From Longimicrobiales bacterium (lineage in GTDB: Bacteria; Gemmatimonadota; Gemmatimonadetes; Longimicrobiales; Gaopeijiaceae): a DNA stretch of 64,000 bases. The notes below the pieces were generated by a model, which did not search any database, was not told the DNA's origin, and saw only the letters and a program-made list of their open reading frames with translations. The position numbers were made by a program, and so were the translations under genes. Of this stretch, positions 1,499 through 26,712 are shown in pieces. How positions within the stretch are numbered: position 1 is the first letter of the stretch; every line of letters begins with the position of its first letter. The stretch lies in NCBI GenBank assembly GCA_965238005.1, contig OZ250165.1, positions 2,336,001 to 2,400,000 on the forward strand. The letters are read 5' to 3'.

Positions 1499-1535
1499 CT
1501 AGGGTTGCGTTCAGGCGGGTGATGGGATTGGTCAT
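1499..1535 (-). pseudogene. 5' stub of a probable Ser/Thr protein kinase gene interrupted by IS1182
   Basis: ATG at 1535 reads MTNPITRLNATL into the CTAG. This resembles the 'M.DPI.RLNAALEGRY' N-terminus of Pkn2-type kinases. Confidence 0.45.
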
Positions 1536-1714
1536 GCGATGCAAGATGCGCTCAGCAGACTCAGGCCGCTAGCAAACCAGCTCTATTGGGCGGCCAGTAG
1601 GTAGGCCAACGTCCGACCCAGAGGCGTCGTTACCTTGCAGCGTGTCTGAGCCCCAGACATGTTCCACAGACGCCCCACTCCGTAGTCCTCCCCAAAAGAG
1701 CGGAGAGATTTGGA

Positions 1715-1978
1715 ATGATCGGGATTGGCGAGCTGGTGCTGCTCATCTTGGCCTTCCTCTTCGCTGGTGGGGCTATCTCCCGGTTGGCCAGGTGGGCGTT
1801 CTTCCGACGGGCCTCTGGTGCGAAGCAAGTTCTGTGGGTGCTAGCCGATTGGATCAAGAAGCGGAGCGAAGCCCACGCTTTGGACTCGGCGGACATGGAT
1901 ACGCCGTCCGTGTCTGCGAAGAACACCGATACCCCACCTTCCCGTACTGAGGCCAGAGGAAACGAAGAACCACCCTGA
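1715..1978 (+). CDS. small hypothetical membrane protein
   Basis: 87-aa ORF with hydrophobic N-terminal helix and GGAGAG upstream. Confidence 0.35.
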   Translation: MIGIGELVLLILAFLFAGGAISRLARWAFFRRASGAKQVLWVLADWIKKRSEAHALDSADMDTPSVSAKNTDTPPSRTEARGNEEPP

Positions 1979-2299
1979 GCGGGCCGGGAGGCGCAAGCAG
2001 AGCCCTGTCAGACGCCTGTATTTGCGTGTGATGCGTCTTCGGTGTCTGTTCGGTATCCAGGGTAGGCTGGAACGTTCTCAGCGCTTAGAGGGCCGTTATC
2101 GGCTTCGCCCATCTCGAGGAGTGCTATGTCCAGAACCGAGACCGTGTTGCACTTCAAAGTTGATGCTGGGAAGCTCCCGCGGTTGCCGCCCCGGACCACC
2201 TGGCCACCACCCCTCCCGCCAAGGTACAATCACACTTCGATAGCGCGGGCAGGCCCGTGCGCTCAGACAAGCGAAAGGGGCGCGGAGCGATGGTACGCA

Positions 2300-3019
2300 A
2301 TGCCTGAGGTCGACCTCTACGGCCCGATCAAGCGGTTCCTGGAAGCCCAGGGCTACACGGTAAAGGGCGAGATTGGGCCATGCGACGTCGTGGCGGTGCG
2401 AGGGGACGAAGGCCCGGTGGTAGTCGAGTTGAAAGAGCGCCTGAACCTTGCGCTTGTCCTTCAAGCTGTCGACCGGCTCTCGGTATCTGATGCTGTCTAC
2501 ATAGCGTTCCGCATCGGAAAGGGCCACAGCGCCTCATGGCGTTCCCGGAGGAAGCAAGTGACGAGCCTCCTTAGACGCCTCGGCCTGGGCCTTCTCACCG
2601 TCTCCGCGCGGGGAAACGTCGTGCCGGTCTTAGATCCCGCCCCTTACCGACCCAAGTCAAACGCTGGACGCCGCAAGCGCTTGCTCAGGGAGTTCGCCGA
2701 GCGAGTCGGGGATCCGGAGGCTGGGGGCTCCGCCTCCCGTCAACGGCTCACTGCATATCGTCAGGACGCGCTCCGGTGCGCACGAGAATTGGCCGCTGAG
2801 GGCGTCCTCAAGGTCAGCGTTATCCGCGAGCGTGCCGAAGTGCCGCGGGCCGGACCCATTCTGCGAGACAATTACTACGGCTGGTTCGATCGCGTGAAGA
2901 CTGGCCACTACGATCTCTCACCGAAGGGACGACGAGACCTCGCCCAATGGTCGGAGGCGCTCAAGAGCCTGGCGCCTAGACCTGAGGTTGGTCCCCCGCA
3001 CCGTGGCGCCCTCAAATAG
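2300..3019 (+). CDS. DUF2161 family putative PD-(D/E)XK nuclease-like protein
   Basis: Start reassigned to MPEVDLYGPIKRFLEAQGYTVKGEIGPCDVVA. Motifs 'VVVELK', 'TAYRQDALRCA', 'ILRDNYYGWF.RV..G.Y.LS'. Confidence 0.85.
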   Translation: MPEVDLYGPIKRFLEAQGYTVKGEIGPCDVVAVRGDEGPVVVELKERLNLALVLQAVDRLSVSDAVYIAFRIGKGHSASWRSRRKQVTSLLRRLGLGLLTVSARGNVVPVLDPAPYRPKSNAGRRKRLLREFAERVGDPEAGGSASRQRLTAYRQDALRCARELAAEGVLKVSVIRERAEVPRAGPILRDNYYGWFDRVKTGHYDLSPKGRRDLAQWSEALKSLAPRPEVGPPHRGALK

Positions 3020-3049
3020 TAGTCGCCTTGCAGCTCGGGAGCGGGAGCT

Positions 3050-3143
3050 TCCTAACGATTCAGCGTTTCTGCTGCGGGCTACGATGCTAACCGCGATAGC
3101 GCTACGCAAGCTGATGCCGCCAGCAGGCAACTGCGTGTTAGAC
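3050..3143 (+). other. attC-like integron recombination site (solo)
   Basis: CCTAAC (3051-3056) ... GTTAGAC (3137-3143) with imperfectly complementary inner arms CTGCTGCGGGC / GCCGCCAGCAG. Confidence 0.4.
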
Positions 3144-3235
3144 GGTTCTACGGGTACAGCCTACCCTGATCCTTTACACAATGGCCTACACTGATGGTTG
3201 ACAGGTTCCTATCAACCAGGGTTCTGCAACTAGGA

Positions 3236-3741
3236 GAGATGGGTGGTGCTGGTTTTTCGTGGCGGTGGATCACTGCGTCACGGACGTGGTGGGCTGGCAC
3301 GTGGCGAAGAAGGGCGATCGGTGGGCAGCGCTCGAGCCGATCCGCCAGGGCGTACGGACCCACATGGACGACTACGCGCCCAAGATCGCTCTGGGGCTCG
3401 GCCTACGGCACGACTGGGGACCGCAGTACACGGCGCATCAGTTCCAGGGGGAGCTGGCCTGGCTCGGGATCCGCTCGACGGCCTCGTACGTGGGAGAGCC
3501 GGAGTGCAACGGCGTCGCAGAGCGCTTCATGCGGACGCTGAAGGAGGAGTGCTTGTACCTCCACGACTTCAAGAGTCTCGAGGAGGCCAGACAGGAGATC
3601 GACGCGTTTATCGAACGCTACAACCGCGGGTGGCTCCTAGAGCGGCATGGGTATCGGACCCCGGCCCAGGTCCGTCAGGAGCTCACCCTGAAGGCGGCTT
3701 GATTAGGCCGCCGACTTGTCCAGCAAACCGGAACCGGTACA
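3236..3741 (+). mobile_element. IS3-family remnant (3' part of the integrase core plus right end)
   Basis: Frame reads DGWCWFFVAVDHC...LRHDWGPQYTA...NGVAERFMRTLKEE, stop at 3702. Element end ...GGAACCGGTACA at 3741. Confidence 0.85.
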
Positions 3742-4259
3742 GCCGCTTCCTGCCCGAGGCACGCCGTCAGAGGTGTACGGTCCATCTGCAGCGTAATGTG
3801 GGGGCGAGGGTCCCCCACCGCCTACGCAAGCGCGTGGCGCGTGAGGTCTCGGTGATCTTCCAGACATCCGGACTCGCCGAGGCGAAGAAGCTCCTGGGCG
3901 AGTTCGGCGCACGCTGGAAGAAGGAGCTGCCCGAGGCCGTGGAGGTCCTGGAGCGGGGCTTCGGGGCAGCGACGCAGTTCTACGCGTTCCCCGAGGCGCA
4001 CTGGCCCCGGCTGCGTACCACCAACAGCCTCGAGCGGCTGCACGGCGAGATCAAACGCAGGATCAAGGCCGCCGGCGCCTTCCCGGACCGGGCCAGCGCC
4101 CTCAGGCTCATCACGGCCGTCGCACTCAGGACCACACACGTCTGGGGCGACCGGCGTTACCTCGACCTCTCACTCCTCCAGAAACAGGAGGTCGCCCAAG
4201 CAGCCTAGCCGAAGGCGAGGAGCTTCCTCCGCTTTTACACACAAATCGGGACTTGACCC
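3742..4259 (+). mobile_element. IS256-family remnant (3' part of transposase plus right IR)
   Basis: 'QRCTVHLQRN', 'LRTTNSLERLHGEIKRR...GAFPD..SALRL', stop at 4208. IR-like TTTTACACACAAATCGGGACTTGACCC at 4233-4259. Confidence 0.87.
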
Positions 4260-4501
4260 TCGGCATTCTCCACGAGCTTGGTGATGACCCAGTCCTGGCT
4301 CAACTCAGTCCGCTCGGACCGTTCTGCGAGGGCGATCTCAACCTGGGCAGCGATGTTAGCATTTCTTAACAGCCGGTGAGCTGCCACCTCAGCCCCGTTG
4401 GGGCTGTATCCAGCCCTGATAGCAGCCTGTGTACCGTTGAGGTCGATCGGATACTCCTCGGCGAAACGGCGCTGCTTCTCAGTCAACCCACGCCTCTTCA
4501 C
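4260..4501 (-). pseudogene. terS: phage terminase small subunit, 3'-truncated by IS256 end
   Basis: 'LTEKQRRFAEEY..DLNGTQAAIRAGYS...A.RLL.N..I' is the typical Terminase_2 N-terminus. The last ORF residues (GQVPICV) derive from the IS256 IR. Confidence 0.88.
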
Positions 4502-4766
4502 AGGAGCACCCCTTCTACTTGCGATTCAGCGTAAGTCGATGGGTGTCCGAGCTCGATTCCTTCTATCTCGGCGGCCAATCGACAGACTTGTTCGATGGCT
4601 TCGTGTGACTCTTGCCCATCGAGCATGTGCAGATGCTTCCAGATGGAGCGGAGTAGAGCCTCGTCCGCGAAGAACAGAGGCAAGTCAGCGATGACGCATT
4701 CGAGCGACTGGAGTTGACCCGCTTTGGTGGACACCTCAGTAGTGAGGGAGACAGGAGGAGTCCACG

Positions 4767-5081
4767 ATGCCAAGAACACATGCGCCGTACCCGCCGGAGT
4801 TTCGGCGGCAGATGGTCGAGTTGGTCAGGTCGGGCCGCTCCGTGGAGGAGCTGGCCCGGGAGTTCGAGCCCTCAAACGGGGCGATACGGAACTGGGTCAA
4901 ACAAGCTGACTTGGATGAAGGCCGTCGCAGTGACGGGCTGACGACGGAGGAGCGTGGGGAACTCAGGCAGCTTCGGCGTGACAACAAGCGTCTGCGCATG
5001 GAGCAGGAGATTCTAAAAAAAGCCGCCGCCTGGTTTGCTCGGGAGAGCAACTCGATCCCGGAACGGGGTTCGAGTTCATGA
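4767..5081 (+). CDS. IS3 transposase OrfA (HTH)
   Basis: 'YPPEFRRQMVELVRSGRSVEELAREF', 'EILKKAAAWFA'. A7G slippery site at 5015-5022 with AGGAG just upstream. Confidence 0.92.
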   Translation: MPRTHAPYPPEFRRQMVELVRSGRSVEELAREFEPSNGAIRNWVKQADLDEGRRSDGLTTEERGELRQLRRDNKRLRMEQEILKKAAAWFARESNSIPERGSSS

Positions 5082-5929
5082 AGACGAATCAGGCCGACTT
5101 CCCTGTGCGGGCGATGTGCCGTGTGCTGGATCTCTCCCCCAGCGGCTACTACGCCTGGTTGGATCGCGAGCCTTCGGCTCGGGCGAAGCGAGATGAGGAG
5201 CTCACAGAGCGGATCGAGACGGTCTGGCGCGAGAACCGAAGGGTCTATGGCCGGCCCCGCATCTACGCGGACCTCAAGGAAGCTGGCGAGCGGGTCGGTG
5301 AGAAGCGGGTGGGCCGGCTCATGAAGCAGGCCGAGATTGTGGGAGCTAGCCGGAGGCGGCGCGGCCCGAAGACGACCAGGCGCAACGAGGACGCCCGTCC
5401 CGCGCCGGATCTCATCGAGCGGGACTTCAGCGCAGACGGGCCAGACCAGTTGTGGGTGGCCGACATCACCTACATCCCGACCTGGGCGGGGTTCTTGTAC
5501 CTCGCGGTTGTGCTCGACGTCTGGAGCAGGCGGGTGGTCGGGTGGTCGATGGCTACGCACCTGCGCACCGAGCTCGTCCTGGACGCGCTGAACATGGCGA
5601 CCTGGCAGCGCCGGCCCGAATGCGTCATCCATCACAGTGATCAGGGAACCCAGTACACCTCGATCGCCTTCGGCCTACGCTGCAACGATGTCGGTGTGCG
5701 GCCCTCGATGGGCTCCGTGGGCGACGCCTACGACAACGCGATGTGCGAGAGCTTCTTCGCGACGCTCGAGTGCGAGCTACTCGACCGGCAGCGCTTCCGG
5801 ACCCAGGCCGAGGCGAAGATGGCCGTGTTCGACTTCATCGAGGGCTTCTACAACCCCCGGAGGCGACACTCGGCACTGGGTCAGCTGTCGCCCATCAACT
5901 TCGAGCGTCGCCACGGAGCGGCAGCATGA
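5078..5929 (+). CDS. IS3 transposase OrfB (DDE integrase core)
   Basis: 'WVADITYI', 'HHSDQGTQY', 'DNAMCESFFATLECE'. Confidence 0.95.
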   Translation: MKTNQADFPVRAMCRVLDLSPSGYYAWLDREPSARAKRDEELTERIETVWRENRRVYGRPRIYADLKEAGERVGEKRVGRLMKQAEIVGASRRRRGPKTTRRNEDARPAPDLIERDFSADGPDQLWVADITYIPTWAGFLYLAVVLDVWSRRVVGWSMATHLRTELVLDALNMATWQRRPECVIHHSDQGTQYTSIAFGLRCNDVGVRPSMGSVGDAYDNAMCESFFATLECELLDRQRFRTQAEAKMAVFDFIEGFYNPRRRHSALGQLSPINFERRHGAAA

Positions 5930-6285
5930 GAAACCTGCGTGGCCAAGTTGCCCTTTACTCCCCCGCTGCGCGGGGGAAGCTTTCCTCTCCCCAGCGAGGG
6001 GGACAGACTATAAACCTCAGTGTTCACCCGTCCACTGAAACGGGACAGCTCCAGACCTTCCGATGCGCTTCGCCGATTCCCGTATGGCTGGGTGGACCTG
6101 ATCTGGTGAGCCATTCATGCGCGGTGTGGCGAGTGCGAGCATGAACACCGCTTTCCACCCACCACTGCTCCCGTCCGTAGCCTCCGCGAGAACTCGAAGA
6201 AAACAAAATTCCTCGAAACTGATGACCCCGTCTTCCAATGCTTCGTCGAGGTCCACACATATTTCGTCAATACGCTCAGCGACGC

Positions 6286-6798
6286 TCATGCTACTGTTCC
6301 TTCTCTGGCGATCCAGTCCTTCAGCCATTCACTGGCGTGGATGAGCAAGGGTTCATCTGCACCACCCCGACGTATGGTCTCTTCTTCAACGAGTTCCGCT
6401 GCCTCATCACAGAGCGTCGTGATCGCGAAGTACGAGTCTGGGCCGTCAAGCAGTGGTGCGTGTTTCCGCAGTGCTTGGATCACGTCGGGTTGGGTAGCGA
6501 GTGTCTTCGGTAGCTCCTTGAAGTTCTCGGCCAACCCAGCATCCAAGGGTGGCATCAGCGGGATCGTTCCCAGTCTTTTCTCCGATTCTGCAACCCACTT
6601 TGCTATGTGGTCTTCGCTTCGCCTGCACATGGCCATTACGAGCAGCCAAACGAGTGTGATCAGCCGGTCTTCATCTCTCCAGTCGGTATCCAAGGCGACG
6701 GCCTTCAGGAAGTCGCACTGCTCTTCGACGAGTAACCCTATCTCCTCGTAGCGTCGGAGGAGTCCGGTCCAGTCGTCGATGTGGCCTGCGATGGTCAT
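6286..6798 (-). CDS. hypothetical protein (170 aa) of the integrated element
   Basis: Start MTIAG at 6798 overlaps the helicase stop (ATGA). Its stop overlaps the next start. Confidence 0.75.
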   Translation of the reverse strand: MTIAGHIDDWTGLLRRYEEIGLLVEEQCDFLKAVALDTDWRDEDRLITLVWLLVMAMCRRSEDHIAKWVAESEKRLGTIPLMPPLDAGLAENFKELPKTLATQPDVIQALRKHAPLLDGPDSYFAITTLCDEAAELVEEETIRRGGADEPLLIHASEWLKDWIAREGTVA

Positions 6799-7718
6799 GC
6801 GGCTGCCTTCCTCCCGCTGGGCCATTCGTGGAGCTCATCTGGATCAGCCTGTCGAATTTGTAGAGTCTGGTAACTCATCCAGATCGGGAGCGAGCCTGTT
6901 GGGCCGTGCCGATTCTTCCCCAGGATCAGGTACGTCATCGCGCCCTTGCCGTCTGGGGATCTCTGGTAGCGCGAATGATCGAACATGAGGACTTGGTCGG
7001 AATCCGACTCCAAGGGCATCCCGCCGTGAAGTCCCTGAACCGTGGGGCTCTCCTGGTAGTTCTTTGATGTCTCCCTATTGAACTGGCTCAAGCCAACCGT
7101 GATAACGCGGTGCTCCCTGGCGAACCCACGTATCGAACGTGAGATGAGGGCGACTTCCTCGGGTCCAGTCTTGCCGGCGCTGCCCATCAACTGCATGTAG
7201 TCGATGATGAACAACGAGCAGCCCATCGACTTCCATTCGCCCATGACGGCGAGCACGTCGGCCACGTCGTGGAAGGCCTGATCGTTCACCGCGAATGGTT
7301 CGTCGGCATACGAAAGCATCTTCTCGACCGCCGCCTCGGCTTTGGATGGGTCGTAACTCGCCCCGCGCTCGAGGAAGGGCACATGCGTCCCGGTTCGGAT
7401 GGCGAGGTTACGGATCGCGAGTTGCTTGTGGGTCATCTCCAGGCTGACGTAGCCGACTGCGACACCGTGAGCTGCGGCATGGGCGCCGAGGTTGATGGCG
7501 AGAATCGACTTTCCATGACCAGGGTTGCCCGCCAGGGTGATGTGCCAACCCATCGCGATCCCGTCCCCGCCTCCGTCGTCCCTGGACATCACGTTCCACT
7601 GGGGAAGGAATGTCGGAGCGTAGTCGAATCCCGGTCGGAGTTCCTTCGCCTGGTGGGCCAGCAGGAGGTCGAGATACGGCTTCCGGTTGACATCGAACGA
7701 CTCGTAGAACTCGCTCAC
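6795..7718 (-). CDS. DnaB-like replicative helicase (C-terminal RecA-like domain only)
   Basis: Walker A GNPGHGKS, 'SLEM', 'IIDYMQLM', 'LSQFNR', 'ESDSDQV', 'KNRHGPTG'. Confidence 0.92.
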   Translation of the reverse strand: MSEFYESFDVNRKPYLDLLLAHQAKELRPGFDYAPTFLPQWNVMSRDDGGGDGIAMGWHITLAGNPGHGKSILAINLGAHAAAHGVAVGYVSLEMTHKQLAIRNLAIRTGTHVPFLERGASYDPSKAEAAVEKMLSYADEPFAVNDQAFHDVADVLAVMGEWKSMGCSLFIIDYMQLMGSAGKTGPEEVALISRSIRGFAREHRVITVGLSQFNRETSKNYQESPTVQGLHGGMPLESDSDQVLMFDHSRYQRSPDGKGAMTYLILGKNRHGPTGSLPIWMSYQTLQIRQADPDELHEWPSGRKAAA

Positions 7719-8470
7719 ACCATGCTCCGAGTTGTGTCAGCCATAGACGACGTGTCGCGCCGTCCGCCACCGTTCACGCCAGCCAGGTACCACCGCTCGC
7801 GGCGCTCCGCGTTCTTGAAGAGCGACTCGGGCAGCTGATAGGTGCGGACACTCATGTGGTGGTCGGAGGCGAGCACGGCCCGACAGATGGAGCGGAAGCG
7901 GGCCAACGGGTCCAGGTCGTCTTTCAATTGCTCGCGGTAGAGCGTGGCCAGAAGTTTCTTTCGGCTGTCGGTGAGCTTCGGGTGAGGTGGCTTGCCACCG
8001 AGTTCGTCCAACCACACCTGCCAGAGGTCGGCAATCGGTGGAGCCGATTTCGACGTATCTAGTTCTTTAGGCAGTTCTATAGACAGTTCATGTCCAGCAC
8101 CTGGACGGTCAGAGTCCACCTGCTGGACGGTCACCGTCTCTCTCCTGGACGGTCCACCTCCTGGACGGTCCAGGGTCTGGACGGTATAGCGGGTGGGGTT
8201 GGGCGGGTCCGGCTCCCTAGTAATGAAGCCCAAGACGGCGAGCTCACGGAGAGCCTGAATGACGGTCGAGCGAGCAAATCCAGTAGCCGTCGAGATAGTC
8301 TTGTGCGACGGCCAGGCGACGCCCCCGTTGGCGTGGACGATTAGCACGGTGAGCACCGCACGTTGGGGCGACGTAAGCTCATCGAGGAAACCAGCATCGG
8401 ATGGTTTCCACAACATGCGGAACGCATCCAGTGGGGTCTCTGCTCGGTCATTCTTGTCCTTCTTTGCCAT
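7715..8470 (-). CDS. phage-type replication initiator (N-terminal winged HTH, lambda O-like layout)
   Basis: 'AWPSHKTISTATGFARSTVIQALRELAVLGFI' HTH. Lies directly upstream of the helicase and contains internal DNA repeats. Confidence 0.8.
   Translation of the reverse strand: MAKKDKNDRAETPLDAFRMLWKPSDAGFLDELTSPQRAVLTVLIVHANGGVAWPSHKTISTATGFARSTVIQALRELAVLGFITREPDPPNPTRYTVQTLDRPGGGPSRRETVTVQQVDSDRPGAGHELSIELPKELDTSKSAPPIADLWQVWLDELGGKPPHPKLTDSRKKLLATLYREQLKDDLDPLARFRSICRAVLASDHHMSVRTYQLPESLFKNAERRERWYLAGVNGGGRRDTSSMADTTRSMV
8061..8186. repeat. iteron array / putative replication origin inside the initiator gene
   Basis: Five 15-bp units GTCCA-N5-TGGAC at 8092, 8114, 8136 (degenerate), 8152, 8168, adjacent to AT-richer AGTTCT(T/A)TAG repeats at 8061-8089. 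Confidence 0.75.
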
Positions 8471-8598
8471 CGTGCTCCCTCACGAGCTGTGTATGTGCGC
8501 CGGGCTCGATGGTGAGGCATCGAGGGGCCGAAGCCCACCGGCCCAATGGACCGGCCCCGGGTGTATTCAGTCCTTCACAAGCTCTAGGTCAGGTGTCA

Positions 8599-9042
8599 TC
8601 ACGCGGCGTCTCCCCTGACCACCCCGAACGCACGTCGCTCCGAATCCGAGGTGGTCATCGGTAGCTCATGAACGCTCTCCTCATTCTCTCTGAGCCAGGT
8701 CCGGATCTCGCCGGCCACGAACACGAGCGAGCCCTCCAGCAGTCGGTGCGGCAATCGGTCCTCTGGTGCACAATTCCCCGTGTGTCGGTAGACCCAGCTC
8801 TTTGATCGACCTAGCGCCTCGCATAGCTCCGTCACACCGAGCCGCGTCTCCGCTGGCATAGTCCAGAGCCGTTCGCGCCAATCGATGGCCAGCGCCGGAG
8901 CTCGTTCTGGCGTGTGATCCTCGACGGACCCTTCTTCATCGTCGTCGGCCAGCCAGGTCCGGATGCTCGATACGGTGAACGTCAGAGACGCGTCTTCCGG
9001 CAATACGTCGATAGCGGCCCGGAGGCGATCCTCGATTCTCAT
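8599..9042 (-). CDS. excisionase/AlpA-like HTH DNA-binding protein
   Basis: 'LGVTELCEALGRSKSWVYR...LPHR..EGSLVF...EI..WL'. Confidence 0.75.
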   Translation of the reverse strand: MRIEDRLRAAIDVLPEDASLTFTVSSIRTWLADDDEEGSVEDHTPERAPALAIDWRERLWTMPAETRLGVTELCEALGRSKSWVYRHTGNCAPEDRLPHRLLEGSLVFVAGEIRTWLRENEESVHELPMTTSDSERRAFGVVRGDAA

Positions 9043-9218
9043 TGCGCGGCCCCACCACCTGGAGGCTTCTTATCCCGATCGAGCTCCAGGATCGGACGAC
9101 CCTCGTCACGTCGCCTGATTCGCTCGCAGACCTCGAGTGTTCGCCGCCAACCACGAGCCAGGCGTCGCGCCTCGACTCCATTATCGGCCTCTGCGGTTTC
9201 TCGCGGACCAATGTTCAC
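9039..9218 (-). CDS. small hypothetical protein (59 aa, below ORF-track cutoff)
   Basis: GTG start overlaps the upstream stop (GTGA) and its TGA overlaps the downstream ATG (ATGA). Confidence 0.55.
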   Translation of the reverse strand: MNIGPRETAEADNGVEARRLARGWRRTLEVCERIRRRDEGRPILELDRDKKPPGGGAAQ

Positions 9219-9418
9219 GCCCGCTCTCCGGCTTGAGCCGTGAGCACGGACGCCTCAACTAGTCTCTGCTGGGCCGCTGCCACCGTGGCGTTGCGAATGA
9301 ACGCTGAAACGGAGCCACCTGACAGCAAGGAGGCGGCCCTCACCCTACGGGCCTGTTCCGGCGTGTACCTAGATGGCAAGACCTCGGAGTGCTGGTAGTT
9401 CGCAGACATTGCTCTCAC
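9215..9418 (-). CDS. small ribbon-helix-helix / DUF1778-like regulator (Cro/Str position)
   Basis: 'RYTPEQARRVRAASLLSGGSVSAFIRNATVAAA'. First gene divergent from the repressor. Confidence 0.6.
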   Translation of the reverse strand: MRAMSANYQHSEVLPSRYTPEQARRVRAASLLSGGSVSAFIRNATVAAAQQRLVEASVLTAQAGERA

Positions 9419-9471
9419 TGTGTTCGGTTTACGTCCTGAGTGTTCGACGCCCGGTATACACGATAACCGCC

Positions 9472-9500
9472 TTGACCGATTGCCGGAAGCCCTGTATTAT
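9472..9500 (+). promoter_or_regulatory. sigma70-type promoter for the repressor
   Basis: TTGACC-17 nt-TATTAT, then GAGGAG before ATG 9548. Confidence 0.6.
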
Positions 9501-9547
9501 ATTCAGACACCACAGCGGATTGGCCCACAAATGAGATTTGAGGAGCT

Positions 9548-10267
9548 ATGACCTTCGGCGAGCGATTACGACGCGAATTGGAAAAACGGAAGATGAGCGT
9601 CAAACGGTTCCAGGAGACGCTGCACGAGAAGAAGGTCCGCGGGTCGGCCTATTCGAGCGTGTGGAGTTGGCTCAATGACGACAAGAATCCGCCTCTTGAG
9701 TTCATCCGCGCAGCCGCCAAACTCCTTGGGGTACGGGAGCAATGGCTCGAAACTGGTGATGGCCCCCGCACAGAACTCGAGGCGAAGACTATTGAGGCCG
9801 CAGCCCCAGAGGAAGACACATTTAGAGCAGCTTTTCAGGCCCTGGGTCGAGCCGAGAAGCGAATGCGAGCCCCATTCCGTATCAGCGATCTGAACATGCT
9901 TAACCACGGGATCTGGGTCCAGCTTGCGATTCGCCTTCTCGAGCAAGGGCCAGATCGTCAATTCGAGGACCACAACGAAGACCAAATGCTCCACGCCCTC
10001 GAGCCGTTTGCGTGGTTACTCGCGCTCCCGTGGATAGCGGTGCGACACATGAATCGAGTGGACCCGACCGCCGATCCCATGCCGCAGGACATTGTCAACA
10101 CCTACTTCATGGGGATGTACCAGGCGCTCAATGTGGCGATGCCGCAGCCTGGGGAGGGCGACACCGAAGCTTCGATCAGGTTTCTTCATTTCTTCAAAGA
10201 CGCCCTCACTGAAAGTCTCTGGGCAGAACAGAAGAGGGCGGACGAAGGTGGGGGCGACGACGCATGA
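9548..10267 (+). CDS. XRE/CI-like repressor
   Basis: 'MTFGERLRRELEKRKMS...SVWSWLN...NPPLEFIRAAAKLLGVREQWLETGDGP'. No S24 peptidase motif recognised. Confidence 0.85.
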   Translation: MTFGERLRRELEKRKMSVKRFQETLHEKKVRGSAYSSVWSWLNDDKNPPLEFIRAAAKLLGVREQWLETGDGPRTELEAKTIEAAAPEEDTFRAAFQALGRAEKRMRAPFRISDLNMLNHGIWVQLAIRLLEQGPDRQFEDHNEDQMLHALEPFAWLLALPWIAVRHMNRVDPTADPMPQDIVNTYFMGMYQALNVAMPQPGEGDTEASIRFLHFFKDALTESLWAEQKRADEGGGDDA

Positions 10268-10360
10268 TCCAACCGAGCGGTCGCCGCACCTTCGTCCTGT
10301 CCCGCAGCGTCGAGTACTTCGGAACGAAAGCCCATGGAACCCCCGAAGGAGGAGAGGTAG

Positions 10361-11224
10361 ATGTTCTCGTTTAGCCCATCCTTAGCGTGCGTGGATGTGG
10401 TGGTGGTGCCGACCCGTTTGCGACCGCTGGATCAGGACAAGGTACGAGCCCTCGCGGAATCCATCGACGCCATTGGCCTACAACATCCCATCTCGGTCTA
10501 CTACGACGACGACAACGTTGTCCTAGTCGCTGGGCGTCATCGCTTGGCTGCTGCCCAAAGCCTCGAGTGGGACGATATCCCGGCCATCTTCCTCCAACTC
10601 GACGACATCGACCGTCGGTTGTGGGAGATCGACGAGAACCTGCAGCGCGCCAACCTCACGCCCGCCCAGGAAGCCGACCACCTGAAGCGGCGGGCTGAGT
10701 TGTGGGGGGCACGAGAGGTTTCGGCCCAAATTGGTTCGAAACCCCACGGGGGTAGGCCCGCTGGCTTCGCATCAGAGACAGCCGCCTCCACGGGCAAAAG
10801 CAAGACGACCATTAACCGCGCCAAACGCCGAGCCGAGAAGATCGCACCAGACGTACTCGGAGCCGTCCAGGGCACAGAACTCGACAAGGGTGTGGAGTTG
10901 GACGCGCTGGCCAAGATGGAACCCGAGGAACAGCGTAAGGCGGTGGCCGCAGTAGAGGCAGGCGATACGGACACGGTACGCGAGAAGCCTACCAAGGCGG
11001 AGCGGGAGCGCATACAGACCTTCGAGCAGAGCATCGGGGGGATTTGCGGCTTTGGGAGGGGTGTCATAAGGCTGTACATACCCTATCTCACAGACGAAGA
11101 ACGCCAACGCCTGGATTCTGAATTGCACGCTGCGGTACGTGGCATCCACGCCCTACGGAAACGCATAAGGAAGGGTGAGGGGGGCTCGCTCGACAGACGA
11201 GCGGGGGGACGCTCTGGATGGTGA
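10361..11224 (+). CDS. ParB N-terminal domain protein
   Basis: 'LAESIDAIGLQHPI.V', 'LVAGRHRLAA', 'EIDENLQRANL', followed by an HTH-like segment. Confidence 0.85.
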   Translation: MFSFSPSLACVDVVVVPTRLRPLDQDKVRALAESIDAIGLQHPISVYYDDDNVVLVAGRHRLAAAQSLEWDDIPAIFLQLDDIDRRLWEIDENLQRANLTPAQEADHLKRRAELWGAREVSAQIGSKPHGGRPAGFASETAASTGKSKTTINRAKRRAEKIAPDVLGAVQGTELDKGVELDALAKMEPEEQRKAVAAVEAGDTDTVREKPTKAERERIQTFEQSIGGICGFGRGVIRLYIPYLTDEERQRLDSELHAAVRGIHALRKRIRKGEGGSLDRRAGGRSGW

Positions 11225-11430
11225 CACGGCCCTTCAGATCGCCCGGCAGTTTTGGGAGGTGCGTGGGATTCTGAACGGACTTTTCGGATCAAGGCCGGAG
11301 ATCGAGCCGAGCGAAGACGAACTCATGCTGGAGGCTGGATCACCTCGAAGAGAACCCGTCCGACACTTGGGAAGAGGCGGTTGCGGCAGTCATGGAAGAT
11401 ACCGAGACAGAAGAATAGAGGAGAGCAATC

Positions 11431-12633
11431 ATGGCACGCAGAAAGAACTATCCGGGCTCGATCCGCGATCGCGGCGATTACTTCCAGGTCCGGCTTTGCG
11501 TCACAAGAGCCGAGGGGGAATCTAAGCGTTACACGTTCCGGGTGGACACCATTGATATGGCGGAGGCGGAGGCGTTCGCGAGAACGAGTACGACGAGCTC
11601 CTCAAGGGTCCCGCCGAGGCCAAGGTCGATGGTGAGCGCCCTGACGACCCTCGGGGGGAGCCGTTCTCATCGCTCCTGCGGCAATTCGAGGCGACTGAGC
11701 TACCCCAGCGGGCCGTCAACACGCAGAAGACGTACACGGTGTCTATGGATGCGCTGAGGCGCTTCTTCGTAGTCGAGAACGGGGACCCTGAAGTGCAGTC
11801 CATCGGCCGGGGGCAGATCCAAGCGTTCCTACATTGGCGGCGTCACCACAAGCCGGACGGCATCGAGAGGAAGACACCTGTCTCGGGTCGCACGCTCGAG
11901 AAGGATCGGGCGATGGCGCACAACCTCTTCGCGTTCGCCGAAAGCCTCGAACTCGTGGGCGTGAACCCGGTCGCCAAGGTGAAGCCTCCGAAGTACGACA
12001 AGCGCGAGTACATCATCCTCAAGGACGATGAGTACGAGAGCCTACTCACCGCCACCGAGGCCAACCCGTTCCTCCGGCTGTACGTCCTCGTGCTGGGTGA
12101 GACCGGGATGCGGTGTGAGTCCGAGGCGCTGTGGCTCCGCTGGGTCGATCTCGACCTCGAGGCTGGATTCGCCTGGATCGCATCGGGCCGCGAGCACCGG
12201 ACGAAGAGCGGGAAAGGTCGGTGGGTGCCGATCACCCCGCGCCTCCGGCAGGCACTCGGTGAGCACTCCGCCAGCTACCGTCTCCAGACCTACGCCGGCC
12301 AGCGGTCGCCGTGGGTCTTCCATCACCCCTACCGTCGTCGTCGGGCAGAGGCTGGGCAACGCATCGGATCACTGCGCCGAGCCTTCGACAACGCCGTGAC
12401 ACGGGCCAAGCTGCCCGCGGGCTTCAACCCAGCATGACCTCCGCCACCGGCGCCTCACCACATGGCTGGCAGAGGGCAAGAGCGCGGTCCTGGTGAGGGA
12501 GGCGATGGGCCACGCCGATCTCAGGACCACGATGGGCTATACGCATCTGGCTCGGGAGCACCTCCGTGCACTCGTGGAGGTGGCGGACGGGTGCTCCGCT
12601 CCCGCCGAGCGGTTGCAGGGTTTGGTCTCGTAA
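11431..12633 (+). pseudogene. int: tyrosine integrase with two frameshifts
   Basis: 'TGMRCESE', 'TKSGK', and after the shift 'HDLRH...MGHADLRTTMGYTH'. Shifts near 11582 and 12430. The full span equals 400 codons plus stop. Confidence 0.9.
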
Positions 12634-12653
12634 ACCCGAGCCCAACCAGACGA

Positions 12654-12690
12654 AAAGAAGGGCTCCGGCAACGCGCTGGAGCCCTTCTTT
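12654..12690. terminator. bidirectional-type hairpin downstream of the integrase
   Basis: AAAGAAGGGCTCC...GGAGCCCTTCTTT, 13-bp perfect arms. Confidence 0.7.
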
Positions 12691-12729
12691 GGGTAATTAT
12701 GCACTTGACACAATCCTGTGTGGGTGTTA

Positions 12730-12888
12730 CTATTCATGTATGGACTTCGTAACGCCTTTCCTGCCAGCGGTTTCAGCCACTCGGTCGAGCTCTTTTTTCA
12801 GCCGTTTGCCAAACACCTTCTCAGCTAGCTTCACGTCATCCATATCTACCTTCGTAAGCTTCTGCTTTTTCTTAGGAGTCTGATTCAT
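12730..12888 (-). CDS. small basic protein (52 aa) inside the IS1595 left end, divergent from the transposase
   Basis: MNQTPKKKQKL...AEKVFGKRLKKELDRVAE. GGGAG 9 nt upstream. Its ATG overlaps the transposase ATG (CATG). Confidence 0.45.
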   Translation of the reverse strand: MNQTPKKKQKLTKVDMDDVKLAEKVFGKRLKKELDRVAETAGRKGVTKSIHE

Positions 12889-13771
12889 GGACATCGTCTC
12901 CCTACTGGATCGTTTCGCTAACGAGGACACCTGCCGGAAGCACCTGGAGGCTCTGCGTTGGCCCAGTGGTGTCGCGTGCACCCGGTGCGGCGATATGGAC
13001 GTGAGCCCGATCAAAGGCAGGGGCCAGTGGCACTGCATCGGATGCGGCTACCACTTCAGCGTGAAGTCCGGCACGATCATGCACGACTCGCACCTGCCGC
13101 TCCGGAAGTGGTTCGCCGCAATCTACCTGCTCTGCCAGTCCAAGAAAGGCATGAGCGCCCACCAGTTGCACCGGACAATCGGCGTGGCCTACAGGACGGC
13201 CTGGTACCTCTGCCACCGCATCCGCGAGGCGATGGGCAACGACCCGTTCACCGGCCCTACGCTCTTCGGCATCGTCGAAGTTGACGAGACCTTGGTGGGC
13301 GGAAAGACCAGGGGCAAGGGTCCCGCCTACAAGGGCAACAAGACCTGGGTGGCCGGGGCCATCCAACGCGGCGGTCAGGTACGCCTTGAGCGCATCCCCA
13401 ACATCCGGAAGCACACCCTTCATGACTTCATCGCCCGCACCGTCAGAGACGAGGCCGAGGCAATCTACACCGATGAACTCAAGTCCTACCTCGGGATCGC
13501 TGACGACGACACCCGCCATGAGACCGTCAGGCACTCCGAAGAGGAATGGGTCCTGGGCGACGTCCACACCAACGGCATTGAAGGCGTCTGGAGCCTCTTC
13601 AAGCGCTCTATCGTAGGATCGTTCCACAAGATCAGCGCCAAGCACATGGACCGCTATTTGGAAGAACTGGAATGGCGCTATAACAACCGCGACAACCCCA
13701 ACATCTTCCGCGACACCCTCCGGCGCATCGTGAACACCGACCCGCTCACCTACCGCGAGCTGGTGGCCTAG
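12887..13771 (+). CDS. IS1595 (ISXO2-like) transposase
   Basis: Zn ribbon CTRC...CIGC, 'VEVDETLVGG', 'IYTDE', 'HTNGIEGVWSLFKR', 'YLEELEWRYNNR'. Confidence 0.95.
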   Translation: MDIVSLLDRFANEDTCRKHLEALRWPSGVACTRCGDMDVSPIKGRGQWHCIGCGYHFSVKSGTIMHDSHLPLRKWFAAIYLLCQSKKGMSAHQLHRTIGVAYRTAWYLCHRIREAMGNDPFTGPTLFGIVEVDETLVGGKTRGKGPAYKGNKTWVAGAIQRGGQVRLERIPNIRKHTLHDFIARTVRDEAEAIYTDELKSYLGIADDDTRHETVRHSEEEWVLGDVHTNGIEGVWSLFKRSIVGSFHKISAKHMDRYLEELEWRYNNRDNPNIFRDTLRRIVNTDPLTYRELVA

Positions 13772-13849
13772 GTGGCCGCCCCCAATTGGAAGCCTAAGAC
13801 GATTTGGCGACCGGGGCATGGAGTACCTGAAAGCCAAGCTCCAACTCAC

Positions 13850-14455
13850 TTAGTTCACGGAACCCGCAAGAGTTTCCCACAGCTTTTTCATCCAGTTCTT
13901 GATCCGCACAGGCCGCCGGGCTCTCGTGAGGGTGACTGTAGGCTCTAGAATAGAAACCGACCATTCGGCCGAACCGGCGTCGGCGGACAAGGGAGGCAGG
14001 GTTATAGCCCTGGCAGCCGCGAGCCTCTTTGTCTCTGCCATCGATTGAATCACCGGAAACCAGTTGCGCAACACATCTACGTCCATTTGGGGGCACGGGA
14101 CATCAAGTGATCCTAGCTTGTGCATTATCACCAGAATTTCCGCCCTAGTCTTACCGGTGAAATCTAGGCTCCCACCGTCCCAGGATGCAGTATCGCCCTC
14201 CATGAATGAAGCGTGAGCAGCTTTGATTTCAGTGGTCAAATCGTGAAATCGATTTGCTGACCTAAGGCGGCGTATCCATGGCCAGTTGATGATAGCTAGC
14301 AAGCCGGTGAACAACGTGAACAGCGCCGCGTAATCTGACCCCACCAAATTCACCGGCACGGTAAGCCCCACTGGCCAGAGCCATCTAGAGAGCGCCCACA
14401 CGTCGCCGCAGAGAAAAGCCAGGTTCCAGTAGATCTTTGTTCTTTTCCATAGCAT
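13850..14455 (-). CDS. IS1595 passenger: hypothetical protein with two N-terminal hydrophobic segments
   Basis: 201-aa ORF between transposase and right TIR, visibly more AT-rich than flanking genes. Confidence 0.65.
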   Translation of the reverse strand: MLWKRTKIYWNLAFLCGDVWALSRWLWPVGLTVPVNLVGSDYAALFTLFTGLLAIINWPWIRRLRSANRFHDLTTEIKAAHASFMEGDTASWDGGSLDFTGKTRAEILVIMHKLGSLDVPCPQMDVDVLRNWFPVIQSMAETKRLAAARAITLPPLSADAGSAEWSVSILEPTVTLTRARRPVRIKNWMKKLWETLAGSVN

Positions 14456-14559
14456 CCCCCCATGCTACGGCCCGCCGGCGATTGCGTCAAGTGCAGAATC
14501 ACCCTTCTTTGTGGCCACGGCCACATTTCGGCCGATGTGTAAAACCGCCGAAACCCTAG

Positions 14560-14631
14560 AGGCGCCGCCCGGATTCGAACCGGGGAATAAAGGCTTTGCA
14601 GGCCTCTGCCTTACCGCTTGGCTACGGCGCC
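14560..14631 (-). tRNA. tRNA-Cys(GCA)
   Basis: GGCGCCGTAGCCAAGCGGTAAGGC...CTGCAAA...GGTTCGAATCC...CGGCGCCT. CCA not encoded. Confidence 0.96.
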
Positions 14632-14682
14632 TGAAGCGAAAAGGGACCGAACGTCCGGTGGACGGCGAGCCCCTTTTCCGAG

Positions 14683-14755
<73 letters not shown>

Positions 14756-14829
14756 ATGGAAAAAGGCGCTTTGGGCTACCCGCGCACGCGGAAATCGTTT
14801 CCAAAGCACCCCCCTTATTTGCGCGCTGG

Positions 14830-16615: not shown

Positions 16616-16887
16616 TGTGGTGTCCCAGAAGTTCGCGAGCCACCGAGAGTGCCAAGGCGCCGGATCCGGGGTACTCGCGCCGTTAGGCGTGGGTCAGGCG
16701 CGACGACGAGGAATAGCAACGCGGGCAACGCGGCCGAAGGCCGTGGTCCGAGAAGGAGGAACGCCGCAGGGCCGGATGCATCGGTGCTCGAGCCGAGCGA
16801 CCTTCATGCTCATCGTGAGCGCCGAGTTGACCGCGAGACGATCGAGCGCAGCGAGATCAATGGCCGAGACACTTCTGGGACACCATA
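16616..16887. mobile_element. MITE with CTAG duplication
   Basis: TIR TGTGGTGTCCCAGAAGT / ACTTCTGGGACACCATA (16/17 match). CTAG at 16612-16615 and 16888-16891. Confidence 0.85.
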
Positions 16888-18549: not shown

Positions 18550-18660
18550 GGAGGGAAATCTACCAGGGCCCCATGAGCCCCCTCAATGGGAGTTGGGGTC
18601 GCGGAGCCGGGAGCCGCCTCGGAGTGAAAAGTGCGGTTGCGCCGACGCTGGCACCGCCCG

Positions 18661-21488: not shown

Positions 21489-21527
21489 GGATTCAGCTCC
21501 TGAAGGTTACTCTCCCACAACACCGCA

Positions 21528-22439: not shown

Positions 22440-22699
22440 TCCGACTCGTCCTCCAGGGGCCGTGTGACCTGTTCGTCGGGGGGACCCAAAAGCTCGTCGA
22501 CCTTGAGCTCGGCGTTTCTGAGGATGTCCTCGGCGCTCCGCACGTGCTCCACGCCTTCTTCGAAGAGGGCCAGGGCTCCTTCCAGCTCCAGGTCGTCTGC
22601 CTCCAGGGACCGCACGATCTCCTCGAGGCGTCGCAGACGCTCCTCCAAGGAGGGAGCGGCATCCGTGGTTTGATCGGGCAAATGGTCTGCCGGCGTCAC
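22436..22699 (-). CDS. xseB: exodeoxyribonuclease VII small subunit
   Basis: 'LEEIV..LE..DL.LE.AL..FEEGV'. Synteny with xseA and ispA. Confidence 0.93.
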   Translation of the reverse strand: MTPADHLPDQTTDAAPSLEERLRRLEEIVRSLEADDLELEGALALFEEGVEHVRSAEDILRNAELKVDELLGPPDEQVTRPLEDESE

Positions 22700-22745
22700 G
22701 ATGGATGTCTCCTTGCTGCGGGCCTATCCGTCTCTACCGATCCGA

Positions 22746-23966: not shown

Positions 23967-23981
23967 GTGATCACGGTCCCC

Positions 23982-24896: not shown

Positions 24897-24974
24897 TCGC
24901 TCTCCTCTATGTGCTCCTGGGTCGCCCCCACGGGGCGGCGCCTAGTGGGCGCGGTGCATCCGTGGAATGGAACA

Positions 24975-26546: not shown

Positions 26547-26712
26547 TTGTTTTATTGCTCCGAAAATCAGACGCCAGCAGAGAGGCGTCTGCATGGTTGG
26601 CGTTAGCTAACAGGCAAACAATAGAATTTGGGCTCGGCGAAACGCAAGGTCGCCGAAGGTCCCGCTCCATGCGGCCCGGCAGTGGGAGGGGGTGCCTAGA
26701 TCGAAGCGCCCG

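Follow-up and report, generated by a model that had tools for sequence, protein, structure and literature searches.

Defective, or cryptic, prophages eroded by insertion sequence (IS) activity and deletion are well known, e.g. those of lambdoid origin in E. coli K-12. The locus described here is like these remnants in its fixed site, in having kept int, immunity and replication genes, in its IS insertions, its missing late genes and its inability to excise. However, it lies in another lineage, has no sequence relationship to them and has no known intact counterpart phage. In intact phages the relevant comparison is with lambda O and P22 gene 18, whose layout places the origin inside the initiator gene; for P22 and phage L, PMC8022706 describes gene 18 as an initiator with intragenic iterons, plus a DnaB-type helicase, gp12. 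For satellites, PMC10085698 lists as PICI core components an integrase, alpA/merR/stl regulation, a primase-replicase, a capsid-morphogenesis or redirecting gene and the small terminase subunit. More than 99.9% of the PICI in that source come from Proteobacteria or Firmicutes, and Gemmatimonadota go unmentioned in its text.

We analysed a 64-kb stretch of a Gemmatimonadota genome (the window, positions 1 to 64000), where a phage-type element lies next to tRNA-Cys. It matches a temperate lambdoid/P22-like prophage in having int and an Xis-like gene at a tRNA attachment (att) site and a divergent repressor and early operon, with int being a pseudogene. It is also like SaPI/PICI in its integrase, divergent regulatory pair, Xis/AlpA-like HTH_17 protein, replication module, genes without family and then terS, all within about 7 kb beside a tRNA. 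As in SaPI/PICI the integrase lies beside the att site, here with two frameshifts, and a small terminase is present (Terminase_2, 1.9e-26), of which ~82 native residues are left. In contrast to SaPI/PICI there is no primase-replicase or recognisable capsid-morphogenesis gene, and terS is cut, the distal att lost and int broken. The element is a decayed remnant of a phage-type mobile element with an artificial distal end, and this copy is now incapable of excision, packaging or transfer.

Gene order and decay of the element

The features of the locus are as follows.

3152..4260, nested IS debris at the element end
3152..3238, 87-bp IS end
3220..3741, IS3-like 3′ fragment
3742..4260, IS256 right-end fragment
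4261..4501, minus strand, 5′ part of terS (Terminase_2 1.9e-26, profile positions 1-78 of 141; phrog_51)
4498..4708 and 6054..6289/6328, minus strand, parts of a second family-less gene, ~150-160 aa, split by IS3
4709..6053, plus strand, IS3-family element (orfA 4767..5081, orfB 5078..5929; target site duplication, TSD, GAC)
6286..6825, minus strand, family-less 179-aa protein (probable start 6798)
6795..7718, minus strand, replicative helicase with the DnaB C-terminal domain only (PF03796 4e-35; phrog_19 3.5e-36)
7715..8470, minus strand, replication initiator with N-terminal winged HTH (HTH_36, RP-C; PHROGs 'replication initiation O-like')
8046..8185, putative origin within the initiator gene
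8599..9042, minus strand, HTH_17/AlpA/excisionase-like protein, 147 aa
9039..9218, minus strand, small ORF, 59 aa
9215..9418, minus strand, RHH-like protein, first gene of the leftward operon (TacA1 2.8e-4, weak and right at the cut-off)
9548..10267, plus strand, XRE-type HTH repressor-like protein, 239 aa (phrog_4 9.9e-12)
10361..11224, plus strand, ParB N-terminal-domain protein (PF02195 5.8e-8; phrog_3264 8.7e-36)
11431..12630, plus strand, tyrosine integrase pseudogene (pieces 11431..11580, 11613..12428 and 12415..12630)
12692..14503, IS1595-family unit of 1812 bp between integrase and tRNA (TSD CCTTCTTTG)
12887..13771, plus strand, IS1595 transposase
13850..14455, minus strand, IS1595 201-aa passenger ORF
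14559..14631, minus strand, tRNA-Cys(GCA), integration target
14682..14755, minus strand, tRNA-Gly

A sequence-only reading had proposed the order tRNA-Cys, int, ParB-like, repressor and, divergently, RHH, small ORF, HTH_17, initiator, DnaB-type helicase, two unknowns and terS, and this order is real. The coordinates place int, ParB_N and the repressor on the plus strand, pointing at the tRNA 3′ end, and all genes of the leftward operon from RHH to terS on the minus strand, with IS3 intervening. The length without IS, given as ~7 kb, was computed as 7.1 kb. The start/stop overlaps said to link most of the operon are of 4 nt at all RHH-to-terS junctions, as counted from the probable inner starts M10 and M14, with the exception of a 128-nt gap ahead of the initiator.

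Other parts of that reading had to be revised. "Unknown2" and a small ORF before terS, counted as two genes, are one gene split by IS3, whose frame is open for ~160 codons once rejoined. The boundary placed at 12690 is the edge of the IS1595 unit, rather than the tRNA. Moreover, terS is incomplete; its frame enters the right end of the IS256 fragment at 4260/4261 after the ~82 native residues, against 148 aa in a full paralogue (48% identical). This paralogue overlaps a 561-aa terL (phrog_2), the pair lying at 1.361-1.363 Mb. A genome-wide search for the C-terminal fragment of terS found none, nor was an orphan IS256 left end found at the flanks of any IS256 copy in the genome. We rejected three loci as the missing distal piece: the pair at 1.361-1.363 Mb, where terS is intact at 148 aa; the terL at 1.970 Mb, which has its own 235-aa upstream gene; and the terL at 1.521 Mb, which is part of a separate int-bearing element. 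The genome holds a ~10-kb int-terL-HNH-capsid element at 1.516-1.526 Mb and carries further compact phage-derived elements.

Some IS families are present in dozens of copies in this genome. The IS3 element has 17 more full-length copies, the IS1595 unit two more (one identical, one 99.9% identical), and three full copies of IS256 lie elsewhere. In contigs from sequencing-run data (X1, X2 and X3) the terS piece is present only as a ~499-bp contig, both edges of which are ISs. Two joints in metagenome contigs (12136>14555 and 2164>3153) were disregarded, having sides of only 20-30 letters, and 12141..12607, without cover in X2 and X3, was left out of interpretation.

The integrase pieces lie in two frames, measured against three of three full-length homologues, which corresponds to two frameshifts; the catalytic HxxR...Y region is in the last piece. 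These database homologues replaced a paralogous 402-aa integrase, which was too distant to serve as reference. The first frameshift is spanned, without gaps and with no indel, by contigs from two studies (four runs), whilst the second is bridged by the contig of X1 alone, again with no indel.

In two genomes of the same genus, homology ends exactly at the tRNA-Cys 3′ end (window 14557/14558) and picks up again, past 0.56-1.6 kb, in a block whose position here is 2,136,176, 214 kb from the tRNA. The comparison shows that tRNA-Cys and its ancestral neighbour were parted by a large rearrangement on the distal side of the element. A duplicated tRNA-Cys 3′ end is missing: there is no second att copy in the window or beside the ancestral neighbour block. 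Nor is there a second copy in the genome, where the sole 21-nt matches are three sites 0.6-2.1 Mb off, probably T-arms of other tRNAs. A displaced distal half was sought beside the ancestral neighbour block and in the 20 kb preceding the window; at both places there are only housekeeping genes.

The reported lack of terL, portal, capsid, tail and lysis families held for the 17 ORFs of the element itself, with zero matches in Pfam and PHROGs. The same families gave no Pfam match in 25 flanking ORFs (from 15017..26594 and from the 20 kb preceding the window) or among the ORFs of 91..4208, of which a DUF2161 ORF was scanned against PHROGs as well. Because the element is cut inside terS, absence of terL, capsid and tail genes is uninformative on a satellite origin.

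Regulation and replication genes

No peptidase S24 or other self-cleaving domain was recognisable by Pfam in the repressor-like protein, and a promoter-like site lies upstream of its gene at 9472..9500. An ORF at 9415..9603 (orf62) was rejected; it overlaps the repressor start, covers the entire regulatory region and is probably no gene. Facing the repressor, the RHH protein may be Cro-like in role. On two short contigs from metagenomes, a homologue of the small ORF directly precedes the initiator. The HTH_17-like protein falls below the Pfam threshold for HTH_17 (18.2 vs 27 bits), with an Atlas score of 0.91 to HTH_17 clusters.

Five 18-nt iterons (GTCCAnnnnCTGGACGGT) lie inside the initiator gene at 8092..8185, with spacings of 22, 22, 16 and 16. 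Seven of the nine iteron matches across the 64 kb are inside this stretch, against 0.92 expected. The adjoining 46 nt (8046..8091) have 37% GC and include the 40-nt stretch of lowest GC in the element, ISs excluded. Pfam and PHROGs revealed no primase domain in the element's ORFs. This arrangement is like that of lambda O and of gene 18 and gene 12 of P22 and phage L, with a winged HTH at the N-terminus of the initiator, iterons close to the middle of its gene beside an AT-rich stretch, and a DnaB-type helicase next. The likeness is one of layout and of weak PHROG 'O-like' matches (E 1e-7 to 1e-10) rather than of direct alignment. The element differs from lambdoid/P22 phages in that its helicase, at 307 aa, consists of the DnaB C-terminal domain only, and in its host, Gemmatimonadota versus Enterobacteria for lambdoid phages.

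The replication module had been called unusual, which it is for a PICI; for lambdoid/P22-like phages it is ordinary, and the pairing of initiator and DnaB-type helicase is common in complete phages. The C-terminal domain of the initiator (aa ~135-233) recurs at 41-61% identity in 32 of 34 viral contigs, the other two (L005, L006) matching over longer stretches. A helicase 33-43% identical to ours lies 0.6-2 kb downstream of this domain in 27 of the 34, and the four of these that we annotated carry TerL (2/4), endolysin (3/4) and a terS-like gene no more than 0.3 kb from the helicase (3/4), although such IMG/VR contigs possibly include satellites themselves. Among phage records, 911 match the helicase; the top match is a temperate phage, complete at 41.7 kb, whose annotation includes terL and a P22-like portal.

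Relatives and origin of the element

No intact close relative of the element was found in any collection searched. Close initiator relatives (60-80% identity) occur only on contigs of up to 2.8 kb, those at 60-77% in metagenomes being on contigs of 1.1-1.3 kb, and the viral contig collection holds distant relatives only. Searches with the initiator alignment and the helicase against 185,579 species genomes gave no close relative. Among 41 related genomes the initiator was found in two, including this one (the other match at E 9e-6); among 401 phylum genomes the helicase was found in two at E <= 1e-30, again including this one (the other 39% identical). The 179-aa protein is an ORFan, with three weak relatives among 1.84 billion representatives, no usable match in the Atlas and no relative in the viral contig collection. 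Neither it nor the IS3-split gene, i.e. both genes between helicase and terS, has a Pfam or PHROG family.

Related integrases (45-56% identity) were found at eight loci in the phylum, and the 11-20 kb retrieved around each of them hold no full-size prophage. Two of the eight could be delimited, as islands of 9.3 and 11.85 kb. HTH_17-like homologues (31-69% identity) are present at five of the eight and adjoin int in three (L140, L142, L143). The cargo includes type I R-M (L144), Dcm/Vsr (L142) and primase-helicases (L140, L145). One locus, L141, lies in another genus at the same tRNA-Cys/Gly site and carries an AAA_25 helicase, a terS-like gene (phrog_4044, 4.9e-17) and an HTH_17 gene. No terL follows the terS-like gene, and none was matched among 22 Pfam-scanned and 14 PHROG-scanned ORFs. 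L141 has only int and the HTH_17 gene in common with our element, is IS-ridden and its ends are undelimited.

On balance we consider the element to be probably the remnant of a small prophage's early region plus the first 82 codons of its packaging module, and we favour this over the remnant of a PICI-like satellite, which we hold to be the less probable origin. A temperate phage-type ancestor would have integrated at the tRNA-Cys 3′ end, its HTH repressor acting in the 129-bp divergent region to silence the leftward operon. Once induced, the operon would have given the RHH (Cro-like) and HTH_17 Xis/AlpA-like proteins. The O-like initiator may then have bound the five iterons in its own gene and opened the adjacent AT-rich stretch, its conserved C-terminal domain recruiting the element's own DnaB-type helicase, as for lambda O and P22 gp18/gp12, before TerS marked the DNA for packaging. 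Its decay is seen in two int frameshifts, IS3 in one gene, IS1595 beside att, an IS256-associated deletion of all past terS codon ~82 and the large distal rearrangement. Against this prophage reading, no intact relative was found, the 7.1 kb from int to terS are typical of PICI and few for the early region of a prophage, the repressor has no recognisable self-cleaving peptidase domain, and the loci with related integrases show no full-size prophage in the fetched 11-20 kb and two islands of 9.3 and 11.85 kb.

A satellite ancestor is a tentative alternative. It would have been a 10-15 kb island with int, repressor, an Xis/AlpA-like protein, a lambda/P22-type replicon, two interference-type genes and terS; we think it doubtful, if conceivable, that such an island hijacked helper-phage capsids and that IS activity removed just the terS end and a short accessory tail. 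The order of int and regulator, then divergently regulator, xis, replication, unknowns and terS, together with the 7.1 kb, agrees with the layout of PICI and with their median size of 9.5 kb in PMC10085698, and genes without family between helicase and terS are usual for interference genes. However, what would define a satellite, namely that the whole element has no structural genes, can no longer be observed with terS cut and the distal att lost, the primase-replicase listed as a core component in PMC10085698 is absent, the replicon is of the type found in complete phages, and no helper phage is evident. The reading is kept alive because related integrases in the phylum occupy small islands of 9-12 kb, including both delimitable ones; L141, with its terS-like gene and no terL match at the same site, and the other compact phage-derived elements in the genome also speak for it, but L141 shares just int and the HTH_17 gene and is itself undelimited. 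The original argument for a satellite, an end at terS without late genes, fails, as that end is artificial (IS256 cut, distal att lost, neighbour 214 kb off). The truncation agrees with the alternative offered alongside it, loss of the late genes from a prophage early region; a truncated satellite would look identical.

Lastly, it is improbable that the element is a composite, in which recombination brought a phage segment with replication genes and terS into an integrative (defence/cargo) island, or IS-mediated rearrangement joined two neighbouring elements: the same integrase clade does carry unrelated cargo elsewhere (L144, L142, L140, L145), some IS families have dozens of copies and the locus is rearranged, but the strand-consistent operon from RHH to terS with its 4-nt overlaps and the even GC of 0.61 across 4261..12691 argue for a single co-evolved unit.

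Implications for satellite searches in Gemmatimonadota

The locus is of little weight in itself: an immobile integrated element in decay, one more in a genome rich in ISs. It shows that a satellite call from "int to terS, then nothing" fails when an IS cuts the last gene; gene completeness and a second att site need checking before such calls. The putative origin, with its iterons, AT-rich stretch, initiator and helicase, could be of use as a replicon component in this lineage, for which genetic tools are scarce. It is a speculative suggestion that the ancestor was a Gemmatimonadota phage satellite replicating by a lambda/P22-type initiator and its own DnaB-type helicase, not a primase-replicase, within an undescribed compact set. 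Such a set, whose existence we regard as uncertain and rather unlikely, would be the compact terS- or terL-bearing islands of the integrase clade (L141, L145, L146 and the 1.516-1.526 Mb element). Gemmatimonadota, whose phages and satellites are barely described, do hold compact elements in which an integrase is linked to terS or terL; a satellite search would do better to start from these than from the present locus.

Gene content and damage of the tRNA-Cys element

The element lies at 4261..12691 in a genome assembled as a single 4.84-Mb contig, and its GC content is 0.61 across this interval against about 0.65-0.68 outside the locus. The gene list of the sequence-only reading, which had proposed a PICI/SaPI-like phage satellite, was borne out when the ORFs were scanned against Pfam and PHROGs.

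Features of the element and its integration site (window positions)
4235..4501, minus: Terminase_2 small subunit (terS; 1.9e-26)
between terS and the helicase, minus: two proteins with no family in Pfam/PHROG scans
6795..7718, minus: DnaB C-terminal-domain helicase (4e-35)
7715..8470, minus: initiator (HTH_36, 7e-8; RP-C, 1.3e-5; PHROGs 'replication initiation O-like')
8599..9042, minus: HTH_17-like protein (Pfam/PHROG scans)
9039..9218, minus: 59-aa ORF
9215..9418, minus: RHH protein, weak match (Pfam/PHROG scans)
9548..10267, plus, toward tRNA 3' end: XRE-type HTH protein (phrog_4 'transcriptional repressor', 9.9e-12)
10361..11224, plus, toward tRNA 3' end: ParB N-terminal-domain protein (phrog_3264, 8.7e-36)
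from 11431, plus, toward tRNA 3' end: tyrosine integrase (Pfam and PHROG scans)
14559..14631, minus: tRNA-Cys(GCA) (ARAGORN)
14682..14755, minus: tRNA-Gly(GCC) (ARAGORN)

All junctions from RHH to terS are 4-nt start/stop overlaps, bar a 128-nt gap preceding the initiator, taking M10 and M14 as the putative inner starts of the two unknown proteins.

IS boundaries were placed by aligning the locus with the entire genome (blastn), and their edges are sharp. An IS3-family copy, one of 18 full-length copies in the genome, lies at 4709..6053 with the TSD GAC. Once it and one TSD copy are removed, 6054..6289/6328 and 4498..4708 form a single open frame of ~160 codons. Therefore, 'unknown2' and the small ORF preceding terS, previously read as separate genes, are one gene split by IS3. 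Between the integrase and the tRNA lies an 1812-bp IS1595-family unit (12692..14503, TSD CCTTCTTTG), and the end first assigned to the element, 12690, is simply the edge of this unit. It has two other genomic copies, one identical and one 99.9% identical; its 201-aa passenger ORF (13850..14455) has no family match, and the protein is identical in all three copies.

The integrase lies in three pieces and two frames, with 11431..11580 in the first, 11613..12428 in the other and 12415..12630 in the first again, as mapped on three homologues of full length, 377-405 aa, whose identity to the central piece is 56-72%, and in a three-frame view. Judged by these frames, it is a pseudogene. After ~82 native residues, at 4260/4261, the terS frame passes into an IS256-type element at its right end. 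The genome's other Terminase_2 protein (148 aa, 48% identical over the common part) matches phrog_51 across ~60 more profile positions that are missing here, and terS is thus cut, not whole. The IS256 copy at terS is a 519-bp right-end fragment abutting an IS3-like 3' fragment (3220..3741) and an 87-bp IS end (3152..3238). Three full IS256 copies exist in the genome, and the flanks of its IS256 copies revealed no orphan left end. Given this fragmentary copy and the missing left end, the rest of terS and whatever came after were deleted, not just displaced by insertion.

The present state is also seen in contigs from four public runs (two studies): one of run X1 spans 6026..12721 with zero differences or gaps, and one of run X2, from the second study, spans 6024..12017. 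In runs X1, X2 and X3, the terS piece occurs solely as a ~499-bp contig between the two ISs. X1 possibly stems from the sample of the genome's origin, and its long contig alone bridges the second integrase frameshift.

The distal boundary is also gone. No second tRNA-Cys 3' end was found in the window (23-mer, <=3 mismatches), and elsewhere in the genome there were short matches only, the longest three being of 21 nt, 0.6-2.1 Mb away, which are probably T-arms belonging to other tRNAs. Homology of two same-genus genomes (G001 and G002) to the locus halts exactly at the tRNA-Cys 3' end (14557/14558) and restarts after 1.6 kb and 0.56 kb, respectively, in a block that runs downward from position 2,136,176 of the present genome. 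This block adjoins tRNA-Cys in both genomes; here it lies 214 kb away. The comparison of window position 14558 with 2,136,176 indicates that a segment was transposed or that a large rearrangement took place, one breakpoint being at the element. Only housekeeping genes (hslV-like, trmFO/gidA-like, topA, aroK, aroC and pil genes) lie beside the block, and four small ORFs near it gave no PHROG match. The genes left of the window are dnaK, htrA, tig, clpP, clpX and lon.

The genome as a whole is very IS-rich. A 1.5-kb IS1182-like element (1..1503) is represented by dozens of copies that are 99.7-100% identical. The query, which also included 0.7 kb of flank holding another repeat, gave 73 blastn matches, of which the 24 longest are full length. 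Two copies are near-tandem, one at the window start and one immediately to its left. A ~130-bp repeat (1977..2105) has 25 blastn matches in the genome at a median identity of 80%, with copies in same-genus genomes. Wedged among IS copies is a segment (2043..3151) with a DUF2161 gene (putative PD-(D/E)XK; 2126..3019) found in neither same-genus genome; it may be left over from this element or from a different mobile one. Moreover, a MITE-like repeat of ~282 bp with terminal inverted repeats (~16610..16891) sits between an outer-membrane-type ORF and recN, and has 37 blastn matches in this genome, 14 near full length; the two same-genus genomes hold dozens more, 93-97% identical.

Replication module and its relatives

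Within the initiator gene, the 18-nt unit GTCCAnnnnCTGGACGGT occurs in five copies at 8092..8185 with spacings of 22, 22, 16 and 16. The 64-kb window holds nine matches to the unit, seven of them inside 8092..8185 (0.92 expected; <=2 mismatches, both strands). These iterons fall in the linker between the N-terminal winged HTH and the C-terminal domain, and directly 3' of them on the coding strand is a 46-nt stretch of 37% GC (8046..8091) that includes the 40-mers with the lowest GC in the non-IS part of the element. This arrangement repeats the layout of lambda O and of gene 18 in phages P22 and L, as outlined in PMC8022706. Its 'Replication region' section puts four iterons of ~20 bp close to the middle of gene O; gene 18 of P22 and of L is described there as arranged like lambda O. 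A partner gene follows in all three phages, and in P22 and L it encodes the DnaB-type helicase gp12. In the living ancestor, the initiator would have bound the iterons and opened the AT-rich stretch, and its C-terminal domain may have recruited the element's own helicase.

The 129-bp divergent region 9419..9547 would hold the regulatory switch. It contains one promoter-like site (9472..9500, score 10/12), from a scan that overall was not above chance (2 found, 1.5 expected). The HTH_17 protein is a putative excisionase or AlpA-type factor, and its homologues occur in 5/8 related-integrase loci, adjoining int in three (L140, L142, L143).

An intact relative of the element was not found in the collections searched. 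Initiator relatives at 60-80% identity were all on contigs of <=2.8 kb, and the species-genome collection yielded nothing with either the initiator alignment or the helicase. Including the own genome, the initiator was matched in 2/41 related genomes (the other at E 9e-6) and the helicase in 2/401 phylum genomes at E <= 1e-30 (the other 39% identical). The 179-aa unknown had no relative in the viral collection and three weak ones among 1.84 billion representatives. Against phage records, the helicase gave 911 matches, all below 60% identity, the best of which (36.9%) came from a complete circular 41.7-kb genome annotated with an integrase, large terminase and P22-like portal.

In 32 of 34 IMG/VR contigs, the C-terminal domain of the initiator (aa ~135-233) is conserved at 41-61% identity, the other two matching over longer stretches, and a DnaB_C-only helicase (33-43% identical) follows 0.6-2 kb downstream in 27/34. 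Four of these 34 loci were annotated (109 ORFs): the N-terminal halves of their initiators match another PHROG (phrog_2514, 'DnaD-like helicase loader'), TerL is present in two and endolysin in three. A terS-like gene (phrog_1482) lies <=0.3 kb from the helicase in three of the four. Therefore, a short distance from replication genes to terS is not peculiar to satellites.

Integrase clade and origin of the element

We lean towards a prophage remnant, at somewhat better than even confidence. The replicon is of a kind seen in complete phages, and the terS paralogue of the own genome directly precedes terL. The main argument for a satellite had been that the element ends at terS and has no late genes. 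This argument requires a complete element; with terS cut and the distal boundary gone it is void.

A satellite remnant is a possible but less probable origin. The layout and 7.1-kb size fit, the two genes preceding terS are ORFans and the repressor (9548..10267) has no recognisable self-cleavage domain. Moreover, the integrase clade, present in 11/401 phylum genomes including the own, points to small elements. Eight of the ten other loci were fetched; two, with int at the contig start, were left out.

Loci of the integrase clade
L142: tRNA-Cys; 9.3-kb island, 38-bp repeats at either end; Dcm, Vsr, HD protein
L144: tRNA-Lys; 11.85-kb island, 45-bp repeats at either end; type I R-M system
L140: primase-helicase, HTH_17 gene, int
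L145 (G138:C106), 5886-18507: primase-helicase, HTH_17 gene, TerL (phrog_38, 3e-110) 6 kb from int
L146 (G073:C8), 2215-9830: HNH, TerL (phrog_9, 9e-93) 3.5 kb from int
L141 (G269:C38:59850-79800), 11543-18632: tRNA-Cys/tRNA-Gly site as in the element, in another genus of the family

However, none of the eight has the element's initiator, helicase, unknowns, ParB or terS, and L141 is IS-ridden (IS481 and IS110 copies) with undelimited boundaries, no att repeat having been found. Integration modules, moreover, are known to move between element types. An origin of the element as a composite seems improbable to us. The PICI core components given in PMC10085698 include a primase-replicase, which the element lacks, and this too speaks against a satellite remnant. 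Of the PICI reported in the same paper, Proteobacteria or Firmicutes account for over 99.9%, and Gemmatimonadota are nowhere named in the main text. To return to the favoured prophage remnant, the element works like a lambdoid or P22-type early region, and it is not demonstrable as a PICI family member.

Compact elements in the clade and in the same genome

L141 is a PICI-like candidate. Its integrase is intact (425 aa, 53% identical to the element's), its HTH_17 gene is 55% identical to 8599..9042, and it encodes an AAA_25 helicase (444 aa) and a terS-like protein (268 aa; phrog_4044, 4.9e-17), with no terL match in the ORFs scanned. The L145 and L146 integrases show 49% identity to the full-length integrase homologue P0022; neither stretch seems long enough for a tailed phage, and both may be satellites that encode part of a head.

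In the own genome, a compact one-strand element of ~10 kb (C1:1515803-1525735; L045:15803-20000, L046:1-5735) encodes a 402-aa integrase, small ORFs, TerL (phrog_9, 4e-48), an HNH endonuclease and an HK97-type capsid match (PF05065, 1e-7, 419-aa frame), after which come four ORFs (135-170 aa) and one of 343 aa whose portal match is weak and below threshold. Neither tail nor lysis genes gave a match in it, and it resembles a capsid-forming PICI or minimal prophage remnant. An adjoining 133-aa integrase fragment and the C-terminus of the tRNA-Cys element's integrase share 71% identity across 38 residues. At C1:1360942-1363063 (L041:16940-19064), an orphan intact terS (148 aa, Terminase_2) overlaps a 561-aa TerL (phrog_2, 3e-20); downstream, the first gene that could be recognised encodes a Ser/Thr kinase, with a TonB-dependent receptor beyond, and the scanned ORFs around the pair include no further phage gene. 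A third TerL (486 aa; phrog_2, 2e-31) lies at L047:10265-11725, within C1:1960001-1980000, in an operon whose other ORFs (235, 104, 466 and 478 aa) are unannotated. An IS and a 923-aa ORF come next, and this region is possibly another prophage remnant.

The element at tRNA-Cys is dead and of a kind already known, and better candidates for satellites are found among the compact elements with terS or terL in its own genome and in the integrase clade.
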